Assembly (NCBI GenBank): GCA_964016885.1
Contig: OZ024743.1
Span: 154,132,001 to 154,196,000 of the forward strand
Reading direction: 5' to 3'
Length of the DNA: 64,000 nt
DNA from: Eledone cirrhosa
Lineage: Eukaryota
The translations under genes and the position numbers were made by a program. The number at the start of each line of letters is the position of its first letter. The first letter of the stretch is position 1. The notes under the pieces were generated by a model. The model ran no database searches and was not told the origin of the DNA. It saw only the letters and a list, made by a program, of their open reading frames with translations. Shown piece after piece: positions 4,673 through 58,882 of this stretch.

Positions 4673-5489
4673 AATTTGGAAAGAAATAATACCATTCATA
4701 TTAGTATGAAGACATAAATATAAAATTCACAGGAAACAATGAAAAAAACTATATGTCATTTTTATTACGAAGAACATACAACTGTCAAGAAGATATTCTC
4801 CAATTTTCTAAAGCCATCAGCAATCTAATTTTATTTCTATCAATCATATATATATTCCATAGATATCATATATCTAGAAATATGTAGAGTATAATATATC
4901 TAAGTTTCAAAGCCATATAATTTAACTAGGACAAACAAGAAAATAGTGTTCTGTGATCAGCTATCTGATATCTAATAATTTAAATTTGAATATTTTATTT
5001 ATATCCAACGAATGTTGTATATATAATATCAGCTTACAGTTTCTTTAAGCTAATATCATATATACAACAGCTGTTGTATATAACAGAGACCATATCCTAT
5101 ATTACCTATAATGTTCTCTTTGTTTTTCTGTCTTATGATCGTACTTGTAATTAATAAGACTTCAAAATGCAGTAATATGGAGGTAGGTTCATGCCAGCGC
5201 ATCGCAATGATATAAAAAAACATTTCAGGAACAAGAATATTACAAACAAAAACAATAGTACATGTTACTACATAATATATTTAATATAATAGCACATTGT
5301 CAAAACATTTTTTAAAAAATAAGAGAAAGAATTGGTTAGAATGAAATGATGTATTTCATAAAAATAATTTTTATGAAACTGTTGATGTCTGTGCATGTAT
5401 GAGTATATCATTTTGTGTTCGTTTGTGTGATTTTTTATAGCATCAAGGGGGTAACATGTGAGAATATATTATGTATGTATTATGTATAT

Positions 5490-6739: not shown

Positions 6740-7530
6740 GTCACACTTGAGTGCTACTGGTAACATGTAACCCAGTACAACATGTAACATGGTTGGGTCG
6801 TCGGCGACTGAAATAGTACGCCACCATGTTTACTTGGTGAGGAGGGTGATTTTGGACACCCAGCAGGACAAAAACAAAACCTGACAAATGGCGGAAGAAC
6901 TCATAATATTCAATGGCCATCCAGAAATGTGTAAATATGTATATACATGTGTATGTATGTATATATATGTATATACATGTATGCATGTGTATCTATATGC
7001 GCAGGGACATAGAAAGAATCGGGCTGCATACCCAATAGCGTGGTTAAACCACTGGGAGTGAAGGACCCCTAGCCTTTGTCAGGGCATTCTTCTAGGAGAA
7101 GGCAACTCAGGAAACTGGGATAACTCCAACATAAAACTTGCGGCTAACGATGATGTTGATCTTTTCTTTTTTTAAGGTTATAGCTACTATCGCTCAGAGA
7201 GTAGAATTGGCTCAGTGCACAGTGTTTCCTCACTTTAAAAAAAATCTTTTTGCACAGGCATTGTACGATAGCAGTATCGGTAGAGGGTCGGACGCCATGC
7301 TTTGACGCATGGAGTTACGGCCCTTGCCATTCTGAGTTCAAATCCCGCCAAGTTTAACTTTGCCTTTCATCCTTACGGTGTCGATAAAATAAAGTACCAG
7401 TAATGCACTGGATAATTGCTGGACTTGTGCCAATAGTAGAAACAATCAATTGATAATTATTAATAATGTTATATCGTGCAATGGCCATACTCGATAACAA
7501 GGGGGCAGCCATCATGTATGTATATATCTA
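6740..7530 (+). mobile_element. Non-coding RTE-derived element (5'UTR-like part plus RTE 3' tail) interrupted by a microsatellite and a SINE
   Basis: 7000-7268 recurs at 47708-47985. 7478-7525 repeats the RTE 3' motif seen at 6657. Confidence 0.5.
7270..7447 (+). mobile_element. tRNA-derived SINE (OK/OR-like)
   Basis: Near-identical to the 53888-54072 copy. Confidence 0.9.
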
Positions 7531-17870: not shown

Positions 17871-18165
17871 ATACGTGGGCTGATAGTAGGTTTTCGTATG
17901 TTGTGGCTATTACATGAGTTTCATACACATATATAAATATATATTCATATATACATTATTTTTATTATCATTGTGGTTATTATTACTGTCATTGTTTTTC
18001 CTTTTCCTTCAGTATTGTTTGCGTTATATGTCACGTGTTTTCCTAACACCTAGGGAAAATAAACTCAGTGTATATATTGGTAAGCCAGTTAACACACCAC
18101 ATTGATTATAATTTACAGCTGAAAAAAATAAATTCACATATACATACATACATACACACACACAT

Positions 18166-18201
<36 letters not shown>

Positions 18202-18202
18202 T

Positions 18203-18402
18203 TTATTTTATAGAAGGAGCTTCTACAGGACTAGTACTGTTTCATTCAGATGAAATCTTCAGGAAGCTCCTGCAGATTTCATCTGAATGAAACAGTACTA
18301 GTCCTGTAGAAGCTCCTTCTATAAAATAATTTTTTTTTTTACTCTGCCATGTATTGAGTACCTTACTTACTGTGGTTATCCCCGACTCAACCCGGGACCT
18401 AC

Positions 18403-18403
<1 letters not shown>
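18203..18403. mobile_element. Fold-back mini-element (Penelope pLTR-like) in (TA)n
   Basis: 62-bp inverted arms 18203-18264 / 18268-18329 with one mismatch, plus a unique tail. TA tracts on both sides. Confidence 0.8.
18216..18270 (-). ncRNA. Type I hammerhead ribozyme motif
   Basis: GGAGCTTC-CTGAAGA-tTTCatctGAAt-GAA-ACAG-tactagtc-CTGT-A-GAAGCTCC: 8-bp stem I, 4-bp stem III, GUA site. Confidence 0.85.
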
Positions 18404-18449
<46 letters not shown>

Positions 18450-18977
18450 CACACACAGATACAAATATGTACATATACCTATACATATACATACACATAC
18501 ATACACATATATTAATAACATATATCCATGTACACACACATATACACACCTCCACACATAATCACTAGGAGGGATATCATTCTCACAGAGATAATGCCCT
18601 TCTCAACACGTGTGAAGTACCAGTCAAAACCATTTTTTGCACCTCTATTATTATTATTGTTGTTGTTATGATCTATATATCTAAAACAGAGAATGTCTGT
18701 CTGTCTGTCTGTCTGACTCCCTAAAACTCGAGAACCACCCAACCGATGATTTTCAGACTTTACACATGTGATACTTATGGTGGTGTGAGTGATTTGAGCA
18801 AAGAATATTTCAAATGTTCAATGCTCTAGGGACCGCATTAGGCGATTTAGCGATCTCTCCCTATAATTATTAGTCTTTCCTTTTAGATAGATACATAGAT
18901 ATAACGTTGCCCCCTTATAATATCTGTCTGTATGTCTGGCTGTCATCATTATGACATTATGACATCGCTATCTGTGT

Positions 18978-19913: not shown

Positions 19914-22655
19914 ATTCTTTCGAACAGGACTTAATGAAAATGATAACCGGAAATCAAATTTACAAACGGAAGGAAAAACGAACTGCAACGAGATATTAAA
20001 ACTCTACTCGACAACCTAAGGAATACCAAAGGAATTATCATAAAGGCAGACAAAACATCGAATCTATACACCCTGGATGTAGAAACATATAATAATTTTA
20101 TACGTAAGGAATTACATAGGAAGTACAAAAAAACAAACGCAACTACACTAACCAACATTAATAACGCAGCATGTGATATTGTTAAGAAACTGAAAATTGA
20201 CGACAGAACGGTACCCCTATCTCCAGCTACACCGACTTTTAATCTGAAGGACCATAAGGATAACTTCGATACTAACCCTAAAATTAGATTAATATGTCCT
20301 TCAAAGTCCGATATAGGTAGAATTAGTAAGTACATATTAGATCGTATTATCCCCCAAGTTAAGGCTAAGGTAGATATTAAATTATGAGGTAATACTCATC
20401 AGGCAATAAGATGGTTCAATAACATTAGGGATAAAAACAAATCTTCTTTTATTCAATTCGATATAGATGAATACTATTCCTCTATTTCACCCGAAACCCT
20501 GCATAAGGCCCTCTCTTTCGCTAAGACTAACTCGGACCTCACAAACGAGGAAATTAATATTATACTTGAAGCTAGACGCACAGTAGTGCACTTTGAAAAT
20601 AGTTATTGGGTCCGCAGAGATAGACCCTCGGAATTCGACATTACGATGGGTTCTAATGATTCGGCGGAGGTCACGGATCTGGTTGGGATCTATATAGCCC
20701 ATATACTCCAGAGCGAATTTATGGACCTCCACGGCGGAATATACCGCGACGATACACTTCTATTAGTCAAGAATATGAACAAACAAAACCTAGAAAGGCG
20801 ACGTAAAAACATTAGGAAACTTTTCTGAGAACTAGGACTTAATATTACCTTCGAACACAATCTTAAGGTGGTCAACTTCTTGGATGTCACCTTCAACCTT
20901 AATAACGGTAATATAGAGCCATTTCACAAACTTAATGAAAATCTCAAGTACGTTAATGTAAAATCGAACCATCCTCATTCCATTATTAAATCTATCCCTA
21001 AAAATATATCCATAAGGATCTCCCGACTGTCGTCTAATTTGCAGACCTTCAACGGGCATGCTGAATAGTATAATGACGCACTTAGAAAAGCTGGTTACTG
21101 CGAGAAAATAGAATATCTAGACGATAACCACACAAGTACTATGAATAAAACACATCTAAGTCGAACTAGTATTGCACCACACACACACATCAATAGGCAT
21201 ACTAATAGGTGCAAACAAGCAAATAGAGTCAGACGTAGAGAGTACATATGGTATAACCCCGTGTACAATTTTTCTATTAGTACTAATATTATCTCACAAT
21301 TCTATACACTAATCAATAAACACTTTACAACTTCACATAAATACTATAACATCTTTAACTCGCGCACCATTAGACTCTCATACTCCACTGCACCTAACAT
21401 AGAACAACTAATTAAAAAACTCAACTCAGCAATACTGAATAAGTACATCCCTAATGACTCAGCGCACCAGCATAGCAACATACTAAGCACTAACACGCAA
21501 CTACAACCCCACCAAACTATCCAGGATTCTACTGCAAAACATAAAAATAATTGTAACTGCACCAAACCAGGTAGGTGCCCACTTAATAACCAGTGCCAAG
21601 CACGCAATATTGTCTACCGATGTACAATAAATTCCGGAACCAACAAATGGTATTACGTCGGATGTACTGCAACTTCTTTCAAGGCTCGCCTATACCAACA
21701 TCGATCTTCGATCAGGCACGAGAAAATGCGCTCCGTAACAACCCTCGCCGATAAAGCCTGGCAGCTCCGGAGGAACATTCAAGCATTCTCCCTTGATTGG
21801 CAAATTATAGCAGCTGCACCTGCATATAAGCAAAATCATCGATTCTGCAAGTTATGCAATTTGGAGATATACTGCATTTTAACGTCGGTAAACAAACTTT
21901 TGGGACAGCAAAATTAAACGTTCTCTATACTGTAACCATAGTTTGAAAACGACTTTTTCTTTTTTAAATGCATATAATGTTACCTTTTTACACCACCGTT
22001 TGCATATTTCTGTTTTATATGTTTATACACAAGATATGGCTTTCTATAATAATAGTACTAAACACTCTTTTCTGGACGCCTTTAGAAATAACCTGCTACT
22101 ATAATAGCCCCAATAACTTGTCTGTGACACTGTACCACTTTGACCCCTTTAACTAAATTTTGTCCGAACAACACCACTAGAAGAATTTACTTCCCCCGCC
22201 AACCCTAACAGGCCTCATTAAGCTAACTGGTGCCAAACATTCTCTCCTTACAATCTCTACTAGTCTGACAGTCTTAAATCCTAAGACTCCCTCCACCTTA
22301 CTCACTTCCCTCTTCCTCTTCTCTTCCTACCTCCTTCTTTATCTTTTATCTAGTGTATAAAATATTTTCATATTCCAATACAAAGGTCTGACGACATGGT
22401 GTGTTTTCTTACAGTGTACCTTCGGTTATGATAATATTTTTATATTATTCAAATAGCGAGGTATAGGTAACCCATACACTATAGAAACAATTGTTACCTA
22501 ATAAATTCTGTATACCCGCATTTCCATTTCATAAACTACTTCTCCATATTTTCTCCGGATTTTAAAACACACTTTATTATACGTTGAGCAATCTCTGACG
22601 TCGGTTGACTCCATCCAATGCAACTACTTAGTAATATTGGAATACAAATTTACTA

Positions 22656-22690: not shown

Positions 22691-23586
22691 GTGGAGAAAT
22701 AAATGTAGGACAACAAACCATTAAAACATGTTTATTTAAAACAGCACCTAAGTACGTTTCGCCCGAATGGGCTTCTCAAGGGCATAAATAACTAAAAAGT
22801 GTTCCGTACATGGCTCGGAATGGGTTTTTAGAGATAAGATCACGTCAGAGTTCATTCTTCGTAAAAAAAAACATGTATTGATTTTGCAGTAGGTCAAAGG
22901 AGATATCTCTGGCCGGTGTTAGTGCAGTCTTTTCCGGACAAATTTTTTATCCGTTACCAGTATGTGGCTACAAACTTACCATTGTCGATACGCACAGTGA
23001 CAGGAATGCAACGTTTGTTTCGAGACGTTTGTTTGCAGCGCCTGTCCACCTGGGTCGATTCATGCTGGGTCTGGGATGCATGGTTAGCTTCCGGATGTTT
23101 TTTGCAGCGCCTGCCCGCCTGGGTGATAAAGATTGGTGCAGGGAGACCCTGTTTACGGTTTCACTGCTCGTTCTTATTTCATCTGGAATAGGATACTTTT
23201 AAGCGGTGTGTTCAGCTTACTGTCGTTTCACCTCTGCTGTTGATGAGCTCGTGGGGTGCCGTTATGGTGGGGTAGAGCTCCTTGAGGTAAAGCTCGCACT
23301 TCCTCTTGAAGTTGTACGGTGCAGCCCTGCCGGCAATTTCCTGTTGCATGGAGAAGCTGATGTTTGAGTCTTTTAATGCTGTGATGTAGTTCGCAAGCGA
23401 AGTGGAGTGTCTTAGTTTCCTGTTTGCGAAAGAGTGGAGATGTGTTCGAAATCTAATTTTGAACGGGCCAGAGGTAGCCCCTATATAATGTTTAACGTTA
23501 TTATAGCTTGTTACGGTGCACCTATATATAACTCTATGAGTCAACCAGTTCACGCTAAGGGGCAGTATGTCCTGTCGCGGCATTGC

Positions 23587-23620: not shown

Positions 23621-23778
23621 GTGTAGAGGTATATTTGCATACACAATAACAACAAAATATAAACAAACGTATTTATTTCACGAGGTTCGATAAGGATAAA
23701 TATATATCGAATATATAAGAACCCTAGCGCAAATCCCGAGCAACGCCGGGCCATTCTGCTCGTTATTATTATTATTAT

Positions 23779-23898
23779 CTGAGTTCAAATCCCGCCGAGG
23801 TTAACTTTGCCTTTCATCCTTACGGGGTCGATAAAATAAAGTACCAGTAATGTGCTGGGTAATTGCTAGCCTTGTGCCTAAAGTAGAAACTATTATTA

Positions 23899-26871: not shown

Positions 26872-29800
26872 TTGCGACTGCCATCTCCTCCTCTGTGACT
26901 AACACTGTCTCGATATTTTGGGCGACACCTGCAAAAGAAGTGGTTCCTTTTTCAGCAGCACCACTATTGCTGCCGCTACTGGTCTTACTGGTGGTGCTGA
27001 GATCGCTATTACAGGTATCGATATCATTGTTGATGTTTTCGTTGGTACAGTTGTTGGTGTTGTTGTTGTTTTCGTTGATACTGTTGCTGTTGTTACTGTT
27101 ATTGTGGTAGCTACACAAGCAACGACATTGCCGAAGAGGTCTCCACTACCACCACCAACAGCCGTAGAGCACATACCCCTCCCAGACGCCACAGAATCCG
27201 ACATGGAGTTTGAGGCAGGAGTGAAGTTGCAAACGGTCTGCCACAAAAAACAAAAAACAAAAAAAAACTTATATTCACCCTCCAAAGGCGAAGGCATACA
27301 AAGAGAGGTAAAGGCAGCAAGGAAACTTTCAGCAACACCACCACCATCACCACCACACAACCACTGACAACAACAACCACACCACCACCAGCATCACCAA
27401 ACACACCTACAACGCAAACACAACGACACACACACAAAACAGCAACAAGAAGATAACAGCAACAAAATCACCCCTCCCCCCCAAAAAAAAAAGTACACAG
27501 CCATAAACATGGCCAAAAAAGAACTCATACAATATATAAAGCAGCACAGACATCACAAAAAAAACTACTACACCCCTCCAACACCAATAACTCTCCCGAC
27601 AAACATAAGCATCATTGAAATCTCGATAGAACAGTACAAACCTTTAAAACAAAAATTCCCCAACGCAGATGGAGACTTCAAAGGGTCGGTTACCAAGAGT
27701 ATATAGACTGACATCCTCTTGGAAACACCCATGACCAGCGAAAGGGACGGTTCTACTGTCCCTTCACAACACGATTAAGGTAAGTGGCCCTTTCTTACTT
27801 GCCCCGTTTCTCATCCAACATGGCCGTACTCAGAATAGTCAGTATAAATGCACATGGCCTGGGGTCATCTTGGAATTAGGGTCACCTGCTCCACGACCTC
27901 AGGTCACTAAATATAGATGTGGTGGCCATCAGTGAGACCAGAATCTCCGAGGCACAAGTCTTCGCACCGATCTTCAGCGGCTACGATGTATACGCATCTC
28001 CCAGCCGTCCAGGATCGGGGGGAGGGGTTGCCGTCCTTTCTCGGAGAGGCTTGGATCTCGCCAGACGAGCCATCTTCCTAGACCCAGAAGGTAAGTCGGT
28101 GGTGCTGGGCGTGACCGGCAGCGAAGGCAATGCTTTCAGGCTAGTAGCCGTTTACGCCCCAACAGAGGCAGGACGGCCAGATTTCTTCAGACGTCTGGAG
28201 ACCTTTCTTGGAACGTCCCGCTCTTTAGTGTTAATGGGCGACTGGAACTGTATCTTGGATGCACGCTGGGATTGTGTGGCGCTAGTGGATAGGGAAGGAG
28301 GGTGCAATAGCCTCACCAACCTGCTCAGACGTTTTGAACCGTCTGACAGGTATCGTCTGGATAACCAGAATATGCCAAAGTGGACATGGACAAACCTCAT
28401 CGGGTCATCCAGATCGTATCTCGATAGGGTATTCTGTAGAGAACTAGATAAGGCTAGTATAAGTTGTCCCCAATTTAAAATAGTCGACTACACTGACCAG
28501 AAATTTGTGATATGTGAGATCGACATAGACATACTTCATAGACAAGGGCCAGGTTACTGGAAGCTGAACGCGTCTTTCCCGGCGCGCAAAGACTGCATAG
28601 ACCGGATTAGCGTATTAGTTAAGTGGGCGTTGATGGGAGCGGTCGTCATCATCAGGTGGTGTTCGCCCTGAAAAGTAGAGTCGATAAGGTTTAGCAAAGG
28701 AGTAGTGATAGAGGAAAATAGAGTAGAGGGAGATTAGTCAGAAAGCTAGAAGAGGCGTTTAGGACAGGCATCGCAAACGACGTCCTTGCGGCGAGATTGG
28801 CACTCGACCAATTCTTCAACGCAAAACACGAAGGCTGCGTTGTCAGAGCTAGTGCGCGTGCTCTGAAACACGAGGGGACAAAAGCCGTCCAATGGGCCCG
28901 GGTGGCAGAGGCGCGACGTGGCAAGAAAGCCACAATTCGGTCTTTGTCTGACCAAAACGGATGCGTGATGCTCGAAATCGAGCGGATGTGTGAAGCTTTT
29001 CTGCAGCACTTTGCTGACTGTTCGGGAGCAGCGGCGGCCCAGATCGGGGCATGGACTTCAGTGCATACCTCGACGGACTGCCTCGGCTCTCGACGACCGC
29101 AGCACAGTGTTGCGAAAAGCCAATAACAGCCGGAGAAATACGGGAAGCGATGGCTACTGCACAAGGGGTAAATCGCCAGGTTTGGATGATCTGCCCTACG
29201 AGCTTAATGCATTTATGCGAGACTTGTACGGTGACCTCTTGGCAGATGTTTACTGCAACTGGCAGCAGAACGGGAGCATTCCCAGTTTTGTGAGCCGGGG
29301 AGCAGTGGCGCTGCTGAGAATATACCCAAACCAGGGGGATGTTATCGATAATTTCAGGCCTATAACCCTGCTAAACGCAGAGTTCAAGATTTTGGACAAG
29401 GCGTTAGCAACGAGGCTGGCGCTTGTCGTCAAGCGTATGGTGGGAGAGGCGCAGATATGCGCCATTACGGACAGATCCATACACGACAACCTCCACCTCA
29501 TGCGATGCATCATAGAGAGGGCGGTTAAGGAACCTGGCATGGGTGGGGCCCTGATCAAATTGGATCAATCCAAAGCATTCGATAGGGTCGACCATCGGTA
29601 CCTGGCGGCGGTCCTCGAGACAGCCGGTTTCGGGCCGTTTTCAGGGGTTGGATCGCAACAATGTACAGCGACATCTGCTCAGTTGTGAGAGTGAACGGTC
29701 ACCTGTCGAAGCCGTTCAGCATCATGCGCTCAGTCCGCCAGGGTTGTCCCCTATTGTCCCTCTTTTACGTATTGGCTCTAGAGCCGTTACTGCACAAACT

Positions 29801-36249: not shown

Positions 36250-36571
36250 CTATATTAGAAAATGAGATTTATTTTACAAAATGAAAAAAAAACGAAATGT
36301 CCTATAAGGAAAAACGATGAAATCGAAAATGCAACTGGAGTCTTTTTAAGATTATTTATTTGGTTCCTTTACCGGTTTCGCAGTTCTTGTGCTTTTCAAA
36401 AGTAGAATTGAGATGGAGGGTTTGTGGGTTTTCTCTCATGCGAGAAAAACCACAAACTCTCCATCTCAATTCTACTTTTGAAAAGCACAAGTACTGTGAA
36501 ACAGTAAAAGGAACCAAACAAATATTCTTAAAAAAGACTCCAGCTGCATTTTCGATTTCATCTTTTTTCCT

Positions 36572-45169: not shown

Positions 45170-45619
45170 AAAGTTCTATTTAAATTGTTGGGATACAACA
45201 AGCAAATATTTTTATAACTGATATAAAGCACTCGACAAGTATTCGCAGTAAATATACGATATTAACAAATGGAACTATATTTATAAAACCATATCTATTT
45301 TATTATACATATTTCAAGGATACCATGTTAAATTATGGTATACTTTCATCAGACAAAATACAATATATACCAGTTTTATAAATAAATATTGACATACCCT
45401 TTCAAAATGCAACCGTTACTTTTGGAAGACTATCCTGATGTCTTCCAAAAGTAACGGTTGCATTTTGAAAGGGTATGTCAATATTTATTAATAAAACTGG
45501 TATATATTGTATTTTGTCTGATGAAAGCATATCGTAATTTAACATGGTATCCTTGAAATATGTATAATAAAATACATATGGTTTTATAAATATAGTTTCC
45601 ATTTGTTAATATCGTATAT
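45170..45619. mobile_element. Fold-back mini-element in (TA)n with a hammerhead core in each arm
   Basis: ~180-bp arms spanning 45252-45619. CTGATGA-stem II-GAAATATGTA at 45518-45564 (+) and 45306-45352 (-). Confidence 0.85.
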
Positions 45620-48045: not shown

Positions 48046-51000
48046 GAGACCTACGTAGTAAATCGTATCATCGTGAGCTCCTCAAAGTTTTGTTATTTTC
48101 AGTTGTTCAAAATTGCCATTCATGGAAAATGTTATTGTTAACTCTATATAAGAGCACATACATTGTTATCTGAAAAGGACACCCAAAAAGATTGGGGCTT
48201 TGAGCCCAAAATTTAAACTTTTATAATTATCAAACAAAAATTTTTCTTTGAAACATCATGGCTCACTCAGAGTCACTCCTTTCTCACAAACTAACACATC
48301 ACACCGACACCACCATTGTAAATATTACTACGTTTGCCAACACTAAAAACAATATAAGCAGGAGCAATATTTTAAATTTGTCTCAGGCAGACATTCATTT
48401 CCCGCCATTACCAATGACTGCAGGTGTTAAAGCCGCCACCCCCACCACCACCACAGCGACAACAGAAACAAAAGAAAAAAATTAATTAACTCGTGATATC
48501 GAAATGAATTCAACAAAAATGAACTCTTCCTCACCGAACACCACTGACGCCACCACCACCACAACTGAAACAAATTAATAATAACAAAAATAACGATAAC
48601 AACAACAGCAACAATGATATTAAGAAAACCTCCCTGAGTTTTGCCAGAGTAGCAAAACAGTGCGAAGCATTTCAGTTAACTCAGGAGGAATTAGAAGAAG
48701 CAAAAAAATGGTAAAGAAAGATGGGTACAGGGTCAGCCTCCCCCTCCCACACACCCTTAATAAAATGGAGCATCGGCGCCTATGCACCGTGTCTTATCGA
48801 ACAATTAATATAAAATCGCGCCGAGTGGAATGGTCATCCGAGTTCCAAATCCTAAAAGCTTTTGGACAAGTGTGGGCAAAAAACCCCCACATCAGACGTG
48901 GGCAGAAGTATGGAACCGTGGACGTGTTCTTTGAAACATCACAGGAGGCTAGAGAACACTCCATGGCCCCATTAAGAAGTGACGACTTCACACTCGTGCC
49001 AAGCTATTGTGGCCAGAGATTCGTAAAATTCAGGGTCACCCACGTTCCACCGGCCATCGAAATTCCTTGGCTAATAGCTGCTGTCCTCGCCGGCATCGAA
49101 GCCAACACCAAGATAATCGAAATAGCGAAAGAACATCAAGAGAACTGCTCCGGATCTGGGATGGAGCACCTGATCCAAGCGAACCAAAAAAGCATTGAGT
49201 AGATCCCAGAGGTAATAGGCATCACTGACGGCAGCCACCTCACCGTAAGTGTCGAGGGCAGAAGGCCTAGGTGACTCGTTTGTGGTGAAGGAACCCACCT
49301 AAGGGCTTTCTGTCCTCAGGCTAAAAGGTTGAGGCCACCTCTCCTACCGACCCCAGTGACTCAACCATCGACACCACCAGCAGCAGAGATGGCAGCAATA
49401 AAAGAAGCAACTGTAACAGCAACAACCCCAGCAACAGTAGCAAAACCAACGCCACCACCACCCAACGCGCCAGAACTAGCACCAGCGCCTACACCATCCA
49501 CCACGCCACAAACAAAACTAACGCCTGTGGAGGATTTTCCACTCCCCGGCCTATCACAACTGGAGACAGATTGTGACGACGAGGAGTGTGAAACGGTATC
49601 AGGAAAATTGAAAAAAAGAAACCAAAAAAGAAAAAAAATTCTCTTCCTTCCCCCTCAAAAAACAAAATACAGAGGGAAACAAATAAACTATCAAACAAAA
49701 AAGTTAGGACAAAAAGGTTATGACACCATCCACACCAGCATCACCAACTCCATCACCCCAAACACCAACACCGTCACCATCATTATCCCCAACACCACCA
49801 TCACCTACACCACAAAAGTCACCAAAATGCGAAACAGAAACAAACCCACAACAAACGCAAACAAGACAAAACAACCAAAACGATACACACTACACAGCAT
49901 TAAATTTGAACAACAACCAATTATTACACTACATCCAACACAACACCAGCATCACATAAAAGACTACACAACAGCCCAAAGGTTCACACCACCTCGACAC
50001 ATACAAATCACTCGCATCACGCAGAAAACGTACACGACACTAAAACAAAAATTCCCCAAATATCGGAGACTTCCGACAAGCACTCTCCAGGAGGATTTAT
50101 AAGGACATCCTTCCGGAGCCAGAAGCAGTGAAAAGGATGGAGAAACCGCCCTTCCTCTACGAGAAGTAAGGTAAATGGTCTATCCCATCTTTTCCACTCC
50201 ATTTCAACGTGACCTCACTCAGAATAGGCAGCATAAATGCGCGTGGCTTGGGGTCGTCATGGAAGCAGTGCCACCTGCTCAACGACCTCAGGTCACTAAA
50301 CATAGATGTAGTAGCCATCAGCGAGACCAGAATCTCCGAAGCACGGGCCTTCGTACCGATCTTCGGCGGCTACGATGTGTACGCATCTCCCAGCCGTCCT
50401 GGATCGGGCGGTGGAGTTGCTGTGCTTTTTCGGAGAGGTTTGGATCTCGCCATACGGGCCATCTTCCTGGACCCAGAGGGTAAGTTGGTGTTGCTGGACG
50501 TGACCAGCGGAGACGGGCAAGCTTTCGGGCTTGTGGCCGTTTATGCCCCGACAGGAGCAGGGCAGCCTGATTTTTTTAGGCGTCTGGAGACCTTTCTTGG
50601 AACGTCCCGTCTTTAGTGTTAGTGGGCGACTGGAACGGGATCTTAGATGCACGCTGGGACTGTGTGGGATTAGCGGATAAGGGTGGAGTGTGCAAGAGCC
50701 TCACCAACCTGCTCAAGCGTTTTGAACTGTCTGACAGGTACCGATTGAATTTCCCGAATGTGCCAAGGTGAACTTGGACAAATCACATAGGGTCATCCAG
50801 GTCATATCTAGATAGAGTATTTTGTAGGGAAAACGGTCTAGCATAGGCTGTCCACAATTTAAGATAGTCAGCTACACGGACCACAAATTCGTGATCTGTG
50901 TGCTTGACTTAGATAGGCTTCATAGACGAGGACCCGGCTACTGGAAGCTAAACGCATTCTTACCAGCGCGCGAGACCTACAGAGACCGGATTAGCGAACT

Positions 51001-53886
51001 AGTTAAGCGGGCATTGACGGGAGCCATCGTTAACAACAAGTGGTGGTTTGCTCTGAAAAGAGCGATTCGAATAGAATCCATTAGGTTTTTTTAAGCTTTA
51101 GCAATAGAGAAAAATAGAGCAGAGAGAAAACTAGTTAGAAAATTAGACGAAGCGCTTAGCAAAGGCATCGGGACCGACGTGCTTGCGACGAATTGGCCCT
51201 TGACCAATTCTTCAATGCAAAGCACGAAGGCTGCGTTGTCAGAGCTAGGGTGCGTGCTCTCAGACACGAGGAGACGAAAGCCGTTCAATGGGCCCGAGTG
51301 GCGGATAGCGTCGTGGCAAGAAAGCCACGATCCGGTCTGTGGTGGGCCACGGTGGGCGCATGCTACTCGATCCCGGGCAAATGTGTGAAGCTATTCAGCG
51401 GCACTTCGTTCAGCTGTTCGGGGGCAGCGGTGGGCCGGTTCGAGGGATGGACTTTAGTGTCTACCTCGACGGACTGCCGCAGCTCTCGGCCACTGAGGCG
51501 GAGTGTTGCAAAAAGCCGACAACCACCGCTGAAGTACGGGAGGCAATGACTGGCTGCACAAGGGGTAAATCGCCTGTTTTGGATGGTCTGCCCTATGAAC
51601 TAAACGTACAGATGCCAGACTTGTTCGGAGGCCTCTTGGCGGACGTCTACTGCAACTGGAAACAGGACGGGAGAATTCCCAGCTCTGTGAGCCGAGGAGC
51701 GGAGGAACTGCTGAGAAAGGATCCGAACAAGGGGGATAACATAGATAATTTCAGGCCCATAACTCTGCTAAACACAGAGTTCAAGATTTTGGCCAAGGTG
51801 CTACCAAAGAGGTTGGCGCTTGTCGTTGGTGGTCTGGTGGGAGAGGCGCAGACATGCGCCATTCCTGACAGATCCGTCCACCACAACCTCCACCTCATGC
51901 GATACGTCGTAGAGAGGGTAGCTAGGGAACCTGGCACGGGTGGGTCCTTGATCAATTTAGATCAGTCGAACATATTCGATAGGGACGACCATCTATACCT
52001 AGCGGCAGTCCTGAGGGCGGTTGGCTTTGGGCTCGTCTTCAGATGCTGGATTGCTGCTATGCACAGCGACATCTGCTCTGTGGTGAGAGTGAACGGTCAC
52101 CTTTCGGAACCGTTCAACATCATGCGCTAGGTCCGCCAAGGATGTCCCCTCTCGTCACTCTTGTACGTATTGACTCTCGATCCATTACTGCACAAACTGG
52201 AGACGTTGAGGGGCGTCCCGCGCGAACTAGGATGCGGAAGATCCGTGTCAGCATATGCGGACGATGTCACCGTAGTGGTGTCGAACGCCAAACACATCGA
52301 GGCGATCGGCACTACATTAAGAGAATACGAAGCGGTGACAGGAGTAATGATCAATCAGGAAAAGTCAATGGGCCTGCAGCTCGGCGCCTGGAGAGGCAGG
52401 TCCATGCCGTTCACCAGCGTCGTCGGACGCTGGATGGACGGACCGGTTAAATTGCTCGGGGTCTGTTTCGATCCGGACCTCCAGACGGACAAAAACTGGG
52501 ACGAGGTGACGAGCAGGGTGACTTCTCTCACCCAGAAATTGGTGGAGAAGAAGCTATCCCTGAAAGGTCGGGCGAGGTGGCTAAGGCGTATATCGCGTCT
52601 GTCATCTGCTACCAACTGACCGTCGTACCTTGTCCTAAGCCCCGCCTGACTGCGCTGGAGCGTTTGCTCTTTCGTTTTTTGTGGAAAGGACGCGCTCCGA
52701 TGGTCAGGGGGTCCATCTCTTGTCAACACTCGCTACGTGCAGGGCTGGGCATGCCGCGGCTGATGATGCGCAGACACGCGCTCAGGCTACGACATCTCCA
52801 CCTCTTCCTCGACGGTGATCAGGTGTGGTCGCCGTTTGCTAGACACGTATTTCCCCAGCTCGTTTCCTTGACGGAGCTGCAGTCCTGGGTCAAGCGAAGA
52901 CCGAGAGGGAGCGCCTGGAGACTGGAATGTCGTCAGCCACTCACAGCCCTCGACCAATCGGGCAATGTGATCGGTGGAAACTCCACCTCGGCGTTCTATA
53001 GAGGATTAGTGGAGGGAGGAGCGACTACGTACTTGGGGAAACTCTAGGCGTCGACGAAAATCAACTAGCCAATCTCTTCGGAAGTACTTTCGGGCCGGGA
53101 CCTATGGACAACTTCCAGAAATCTCTGGCCTGGCAGTGCTACCGAAGAGCCTTGCCAGTTCGTGATAAACTCTACAGGCATGTAGGTGCCGTCAGCCGGG
53201 TATGTCCGAGATGCGCGCAGGGCGACGAAACCGTCCTGCACACACTCGTCCAGTGTCCGAAAATTGCTGACTTGTGGGTTTATGTCGAACACCTGCTGTC
53301 GGATGTAGGACGGATCCGGCTATCATCTGAGTCCATCGTGAGGATTGTCCCGCCCTCTTCCTTTAGCCGTGAAGGGCAGGTAGTTTTTATCTGTCTGGTG
53401 GCCATGGCGAAGGAGATAGTATGGTAGACACGTTTGAAAGGGCTGAAGACGAGCACTTACCTTTTCGGTGATACCCTGATTGACCTTTTCAAATTTCATT
53501 TGAAAAGGAAAGTCAGGGTAGAGAGGGAAGTGCTCTCTTCCCAGCATTTTGTTGAAAGATGGGTGAGAGAAGCAAGAATGGCCCGAGTGAATGGGCCTAC
53601 TCTGTGTACGTATCTGTAAATTAAAGGTGTAAAACTGGGAGAGGGCACTTACCTTGGTGGTCAGGGTCACTGTGGCCTTTTACTGGTCTTTCTCCACAAA
53701 TGTCCCTCCGAAGTCTCCCCCCTATTGGGGAATTTTTCATTTTTATTTTTTGTTACGTTCTCTGTTTTTGTTTTTTTACACGCAGAAATGCCCATTTGTA
53801 CCGTCCTGTATTGTCCTGCACTGTCCTTAATGTCTACTTTATGTAAACCCTTGTGGTTAATAAAGAAATCATTATTATTATTATTA
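48045..53886 (+). mobile_element. Tx1/L1-clade LINE copy B, near full length, inactivated
   Basis: ORF1 from 48258 with CCHC-like knuckle (RPR*LVCGEGTHLRAFCP). ORF2 ~50205-53619 with SINARGL, ISETR, FRPITLLNTEFKILAK, AYADD, CPRC..ETVLH..C. (ATT)n on both sides. Confidence 0.92.
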
Positions 53887-53887
53887 A

Positions 53888-54108
53888 TGGTGGATTGGCA
53901 ATATTGGTAGAGTGTCGGATGCCATGCTTTGGCGCATAGAGTTACGGCCCTTGCCATTCTGAGTTCAAATTCCGCCGAAGTTAACTTTGCTTTTCATCCT
54001 TACGGGGTCGATAAAATAAAGTACCAGTAATACATTGGGTAATTTCTGGCTTTGTGCCTAACGTAGAAACAATTATTATTATTATTATTCTTACTATTAT
54101 TATTACTT
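53888..54108 (+). mobile_element. Full-length SINE (OK/OR-like) with (ATT)n tail
   Basis: TGGTGGATTGGCA head, B-box GAGTTCAAATTCC, GTAGAAACAATTATT end. Confidence 0.9.
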
Positions 54109-58689: not shown

Positions 58690-58882
58690 ACGAAGGAAAT
58701 ATGGTAAGGCACCAGGTGGACCAAAACGCACCAAAGTACTCGATACTTAGGGTAGTATAGTGGGTAATAGGTACGAGTAGGTCCCCGACGGCTGAGCTCA
58801 AGCCGTTTCGACGGCTAATTCTGGCCAGAATCAGCCGTCGAAACGGCTTGAGCTCAGCCGTCGGGATCCTACTCGTTCCTAT
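58690..58882. mobile_element. Fold-back mini-element in (TA)n carrying the 3' half of a hammerhead in each arm
   Basis: Inverted arms 58767-58882 centred on TGGCCA. GAAAC-GGCTTGAGCTCAGCC-GTC in each arm. Confidence 0.8.

Follow-up and report, generated by a model that had tools for sequence, protein, structure and literature searches.

Fold-backs attributed to Penelope-like elements in Eledone cirrhosa, and a probable RNA start site at their turning base

Penelope-like elements, their hammerheads and inverted insertions

The closest described systems are the Hydra-clade members of the EN+ Penelope-like elements (PLEs) treated by Craig et al. 2021 (PMC8557442), where the formation of tandem and inverted PLE structures is called unexplained and the function of the hammerheads unclear. 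The element family dealt with here shares with that clade the DKT motif, the CxCX5C linker, CxxC and CxH, as well as a hammerhead in the terminal repeat, a (TA)n target, an inverted 5'-truncated copy and a one-sided tail, but it has RWR in place of RWK, units of 3.1-4.6 kb between repeats (L148, L152 and L151) where the clade is given as 'generally <3 kb', and a tail of about 70 nt rather than 30-40 nt; by eye its N-terminus and its hammerhead also differ from those of Hydra-1_Obim. A fixed 5' stop was not found among the features described in the available text of that paper.

The Penelope/Poseidon PAc protein of Anolis (Frangieh et al. 2024, PMC11167929) nicks and extends both target strands in vitro, and its reverse transcription begins internally on the RNA, at two sites that delimit the tail, with uncut RNA as the main template. 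Nicking and extension of both strands, two tail-bounding starts, an AT-rich target and an uncut RNA would all have counterparts at the present locus, as judged from its sequence, although PAc belongs to another clade and its start sites lie in the ORF and not, as here, in the 5' UTR; head-to-head junctions and their location were not found among the subjects of the available part of that study. Inverted-pLTR insertions of Adineta vaga and of the Drosophila virilis Penelope (PMC3846280, PMC2377424) likewise have a head-to-head repeat, a palindromic junction and a tail at one end, and the Adineta pLTR has a comparable pairing of TATA and initiator-like sequences. In contrast to the present families, few copies are involved there and self-priming on an antisense template is the explanation offered, and for D. 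virilis an internal promoter lacking a TATA box is described.

Metazoan PLE hammerheads, for which low activity and a dependence on dimers are reported (Cervera and de la Pena 2014, PMC4209133), resemble the motif at this locus in being of type I, in their location in pLTRs, in a palindromic loop III and in occurring mainly in truncated copies. Opposite-strand pairs of such hammerheads 100-700 bp apart are already known from that work, whereas here both copies abut, and where the published motifs have G-C at 10.1-11.1 the present one has U.U, with a 3-bp stem II and a 4-bp stem III; a U3-A8 core variant among them matches the third family considered below. The non-LTR retrozymes (bioRxiv 10.64898/2026.07.22.740005) are also non-coding and have a type-I hammerhead related to that of PLE terminal repeats, but they consist of head-to-tail tandem units each with its own ribozyme, and the locus holds a single head-to-head unit. 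The architecture of the stub is already published. A search of titles and abstract openings, partial in its coverage, found no paper that ties inverted PLE junctions to a start site, and an earlier description is possible.

The hairpin at 18203-18403 and its hammerhead motif

The fold-back occupies 18203-18403 of the window, the 64-kb stretch of DNA that was analysed, and on its sequence is almost certainly the stub of a PLE. Its arms, 18203-18264 and 18268-18329, pair over 62 bp (i+j=36532) around the loop AGC at 18265-18267, with T18259 opposite C18273 as the sole mismatch; the fold, at -102.5 kcal/mol (z about -21), was equalled by none of 200 shuffles, so that the hairpin claimed in the preliminary description is indeed present. 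The axis is base 18266, half a base away from the axis of the AGCT palindrome. To the left lies the (TA)n target (18178-18200), and no target-site duplication can be read there because the target is a microsatellite. The inverted short arm then runs on the minus strand from element +1 at 18268 to about +68 (18201-18268), ending in an AT-rich, putative second priming zone that spans +60 to +69 in the family. Beyond the head-to-head junction (18264-18268) the tail-bearing arm follows on the plus strand as element +5 to +138 (18268-18403), of which 18330-18403 is the one-sided tail, equivalent to the parent 5' untranslated sequence between both putative priming zones, and the right side of the target is (TA)21 at 18404-18445. 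Coordinate 18403 coincides exactly with the fixed 3' end of the family.

On the minus strand, starting at 18270, the short arm has the type-I core CUGANGA / GAAA / UH with three stems. Stem I is 8 bp long, or 9 bp if the adjoining pair is counted, and is followed by CUGAAGA; stem II has 3 bp and U.U as its closing pair, and GAAA comes after it; stem III has 4 bp and a palindromic loop of 8 nt, and GUA comes last. A type-I descriptor applied to both strands of the 64-kb window matches there and nowhere else, and the predicted cleavage site, by sequence and the hammerhead consensus of PMC4209133, falls after GUA between 18224 and 18223 (element +45/+46), where it had previously been placed. The intact motif at 18218-18268 is the same as the native family sequence, and the junction extends stem I to 18216-18270. 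The 'near-canonical 8-bp stem I' of the preliminary description is thereby misleading: the native stem I of the parent, as seen in copies that extend upstream of the core, is 6 bp, and the window copy has 8 bp because the opposite arm adds bases at the junction. The G10.1-C11.1 pair is absent, being U.U in 8/8 aligned rows. Rfam gave no match of any kind at its gathering score over the 64-kb window. With E<=10 as the limit, the region 18150-18450 gave 53 matches without a hammerhead model among them; the best were generic miRNA-hairpin matches, and these matches (generic hairpin, microsatellite) were discarded as likeness of shape only.

An alignment of seven distinct relatives, whose rows are few and related and include one (L011) with a junction-altered 5' end, has 97.8% of its cells paired, with covariation at two stem-I pairs, stems II and III invariant and loop II variable. 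As a monomer the motif has a different minimum free energy fold, at -9.8 kcal/mol against -6.7 kcal/mol for the hammerhead, and in folding two motif copies pair through loop III at -30.0 kcal/mol with stem II shifted.

The plus arm carries the second hammerhead copy, in which the single arm mismatch changes A6 to C at 18273 and makes the core CUGCAGA, as the preliminary description had it; from its sequence this arm keeps 2 bp of stem I only. The idea of a design with one good and one mutant arm is not supported, as the tail arm of the 30 closest copies reads CUGAAGA in 28, another damaged core in one, and CUGCAGA in the remaining one, the window copy itself. Contigs of four sequencing runs, none of which spans the locus, have A at 18273 wherever they cover it. 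On the count of 28 in 30, C18273 is a private change of the window copy or a base-call error. One mismatch in 62 bp is ordinary, since a comparison of the arms in 34 copies of the family gives 22 differences over 1,428 positions, and while the 'recent insertion' first proposed is right in that this is a mobile-element insertion of a young family, its arm divergence is simply the family average.

Cleavage is not expected in the window copy because a full-length transcript of either strand is predicted to form the 62-bp duplex, in which the ribozyme would be buried, and because the upstream TATA box is absent. Folding bears out the earlier suggestion of a sequestered ribozyme, at -102 kcal/mol for the full hairpin against -16 for the isolated arm. 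The accompanying suggestion that transcription might start near the centre is one that can be kept as a prediction for the parent element, but not for the window copy, as the TATA box lies outside it.

The window has several other repeats. Fold-backs at 36343-36534 and 45273-45597 (93- and 158-bp arms) adjoin (TA)n and are probably stubs of other PLE families, because similar sequences flank many examined loci. Decayed LINE-type elements lie at 27880-29688 and at about 50170-53047 (Exo_endo_phos, RVT_1; 86% alike over 300 nt), a dispersed SINE-like repeat ending in (TAT)n recurs at 2464-2639, 7271-7446, 23718-23893 and 53898-54073, and there is a short imperfect hairpin with 24-bp arms at 5013-5069. 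The 13 window frames scanned (of 49 listed) gave no host gene near the locus; three had Pfam matches, all of them LINE-type endonuclease or RT pieces.

The parent element and the base at which copies stop

The hairpin is not unique, as the copy-number check proposed in the preliminary description makes plain: the last 24 nt of 18203-18403 have 1,552 exact matches in the genome, with 0 for the reversed control. TATA follows in 92 of 100 tail matches examined, which is the (TA)n insertion of the Hydra clade, and two of the remainder run into 5' UTR. With 18203-18403 as the query, a search that favours copies of the query's own shape, 40/40 scored matches (740 candidates) span nearly all of the 201 bp at 94-100% identity. 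Fold-backs with a spacer of 0-8 nt at the turning point of the window copy number 330 loci in the genome, and 566 arms read through upstream rather than turning.

Long copies allow the sequence upstream to be followed through a microsatellite-rich region to an ORF, into which their arms extend, and a protein search finds open frames of 754-823 codons that are 93-95% identical to the query. An ORF with YRDD and YIG is linked to the same repeat in relatives L144, L145, L148, L151 and L152, not in the window copy, and in L148, L151 and L152 the repeat with its hammerhead stands both before and after the ORF, as in a pseudo-LTR. At the front repeat the tail is followed by a leader of about 45 nt and then the start codon (L144, L146, L151, L152). 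The protein motifs are RWR, DKT, YRDD, CxCX5C, YIG, CxxC and CxH; in the L144 frame the Hydra-clade motifs DKT, CxCX5C, CxxC and CxH are at 125, 576, 676 and 704, and RWR is a conservative variant at the matching place of the RWK of that clade. A Pfam search of the PLE ORFs matched no family, so the domains are assigned from their motifs and from a resemblance, judged by eye, to Hydra alignments in the literature. The parent is an RT plus GIY-YIG-type element with Hydra-clade motifs, and the 201 bp are a segment of its terminal repeat and 5' UTR; the window copy is a real but ordinary dead stub of a known element class.

A different family is represented 1.6 kb away by a broken Hydra-like PLE ORF at 19983-21908 (+) with an inverted endonuclease piece at 23188-23580 (-), which is 39% identical to the parent protein. 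Elsewhere, at L061 5100-7750, one insertion and the microsatellites beside it occur three times in tandem at a spacing of about 1.06 kb, and this is a local duplication and not a retrozyme array.

For the window family, family 1, the 5' ends of copies were mapped by numbering stem I from +1, its first base, which follows the start of the TATA box by 29 nt. The map draws on 100 of the 1,552 tail matches, those that come first by position, all on contig C1, which is not a random sample; three duplicates were dropped (n=97), and microhomology blurs the ends by several bases. Twenty-three copies read through, 48 end at -1 to +9, 12 at +10 to +43, one at +44 to +48 and 13 at +49 to +110. Stops at -1 to +9 take 48/71 copies at risk, or 6.8% per nt against 0.29% elsewhere, and 43 of these 48 have an adjacent inverted arm; a fold-back is not required for the stop, as the other five have none. 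Of the 97 tail copies, 61 adjoin an inverted arm that lacks the tail, and these arms start at +60 to +69 in 58/61 and end at -1 to +9 in 43/61. The first 50 family junctions listed comprise, by eye, 20 perfect palindromes, 16 of the window type and 14 others, and short templated inserts are common at junctions.

A sister family with 75% protein identity to the window family has a TATA box at -30, and its stem I covaries and is free of the AGCT palindrome. It has 5,190 tail ends, and 1,870 fold-backs (0-14 nt spacer) turn at the same base; stops at -1 to +9 account for 12/21 copies at risk (29 loci, one duplicate of 30 having been removed). Family 3 is Hydra-like, with 51% identity in the RT part, and has 6,559 fold-backs with a spacer of up to 26 nt. 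In its hammerhead the core is U3-A8 and a TATA-like box lies within the long loop II. Among read-through copies, the distance from the start of this box to the turning point is 29 nt in 22/25, and that from the start of stem I to the turning point is 48 nt in 20/25; the predicted cut lies 41 nt after the turning point. Two initiator-like hexamers at -4 and +1, which we take to be such from their consensus, are also present. The stub at 58690-58882 of the window, with arms at 58767-58882 and the tail on the left, is a family 3 fold-back, and it has only the 3' half of the ribozyme, because the promoter-like box of the parent sits inside loop II. An 11-nt motif in the tail (18347-18357 in the window copy) is common to all three families, and in families 1 and 2 the tail ends in a small hairpin whose loop could pair just upstream as a possible pseudoknot; motif and hairpin are a candidate protein-binding or priming signal.

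The turning base is thus 29-30 nt behind the TATA-like box in all three families. Neither the palindrome nor stem I nor the cleavage site explains the turning point, which tracks the predicted promoter: the sister family lacks the AGCT palindrome and family 3 turns inside loop II. The AGCT palindrome, which the preliminary description had as the centre of the fold-back, is not supported as the reason for that centre, given also that a perfect palindrome is found in just 20 of the first 50 junctions listed. Ribozyme cleavage as the origin of the 5' ends was considered and rejected, ends at +44 to +48 being found in 1/97 copies of family 1 and 1/29 of the sister family. The turning base is quite probably the RNA start site, to judge from its sequence context. 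The spacing of TATA box and initiator used in this reading is a match to consensus. Contigs of four presumed-RNA runs of another organism have loose ends at the +1 base, but these may come from genomic stubs and contigs cannot show starts, so they are given no weight here.

Routes to a head-to-head copy

The best overall explanation, and one held with reasonable confidence, is a short promoterless head-to-head PLE insertion. At a (TA)n tract the enzyme of the element would cut the two strands, and an uncut RNA would be copied twice over its first ~138 nt, from two priming sites, one cDNA starting at +138 and the other at about +60 to +69. Both cDNAs would run off the RNA 5' end, the turning base, and be joined head to head by microhomology-type end joining, with the ribozyme of the template left uncut and its cleavage as a monomer predicted to be weak. 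The step in which two separately primed cDNAs are joined is itself rather likely to be right, and is favoured over a snap-back because an inverted arm longer than the tail arm cannot come from a snap-back copy. Long palindromes can lose their centre after insertion, and such a loss could yield asymmetric arms and varied junctions without two cDNAs.

That a single cDNA is responsible has perhaps a chance in four, to judge by the evidence on its two sides. The same element and RNA 5' end would serve, but the tail-primed cDNA would fold back on a few bases, copy itself to +60 to +69 and join the (TA)n, an idea that applies to cDNA the self-priming proposed by Arkhipova et al. 2013 (PMC3846280), where palindromic junctions are read in that way. 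The 20 perfect palindromes among the first 50 junctions listed would be explained, the second end is AT-rich like the target, and in the sister fold-backs the same loop-II variant is on both arms in 14/14 (8 + 6). This concordance also fits a snap-back and excludes two RNAs from a mixed pool, so that a two-cDNA route would have to account for one RNA being copied twice over +1 to +68. Against a single cDNA, 13 of 61 inverted arms reach at least 10 nt further 5' than the tail arm and so hold sequence absent from it, seven of them without any overlap, and a junction with a 5-nt centre is found in both orientations relative to the tail. Seven long two-armed insertions divide between the two readings, the short-end arm being shorter in four and equal in one, which a single cDNA can accommodate, but longer by kilobases in L094 and L095, which it cannot. 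The extension of both strands in vitro (PMC11167929) also speaks for two cDNAs rather than one.

A further and doubtful version of the two-cDNA reading has a complex of two RNAs and two enzymes in which the palindromic loop III pairs two transcripts of one locus, each transcript primes one nicked strand, and both cDNAs reach the capped 5' end.

It is very improbable that the stop is set by structure in the RNA or cDNA, with the RT dissociating where stem I has its outer edge, or with the turn being triggered by the AGCT palindrome. The stop does coincide with the first base of stem I in family 1 and the sister family, but the turn at the same base where the palindrome is lacking, and the turn of family 3 inside loop II at 48 nt from the start of stem I, are at odds with this; none of the first 50 family 3 junctions listed goes beyond -6 by eye although the search pattern permitted about -20, and a stall would be expected at the 3' side of the stem, which is met first. 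It is hardly credible that the hairpin is a non-autonomous element in its own right, of retrozyme or MITE type, with a fixed unit of 200 nt and its ribozyme switched by the antisense arm, for although the 40/40 matches over nearly the whole 201 bp suit this, in a search favouring that shape, copies picked by their tail vary in junction, templated inserts and arm ends, the arms of long copies run on into the ORF, and the locus has no tandem array of ribozyme-bearing monomers and a copy without promoter.

With the two-cDNA insertion as the preferred reading, the copies likely record how the elements insert rather than being working ribozymes. In three families of one genome some 8,800 junctions converge on a single base that follows a TATA-like box, and in family 3 this turning base is set apart from stem I of the ribozyme. 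The junction data bear on the origin of inverted PLE ends and make it testable, and they argue against ribozyme-cut RNA as the usual template. Were the two-RNA complex true, head-to-head stubs in their thousands would preserve, as fossils, the positions of start sites, and the main role of the ribozyme at the 5' end would be dimerisation and not cutting; short transcripts of family 3 would then keep the palindrome with half a ribozyme, and a whole one would be found only at the 3' repeat of read-through RNA. For the host, perfect hairpins of 60 bp, present in thousands, could supply RNA editing or small-RNA pathways wherever its transcripts run through them.
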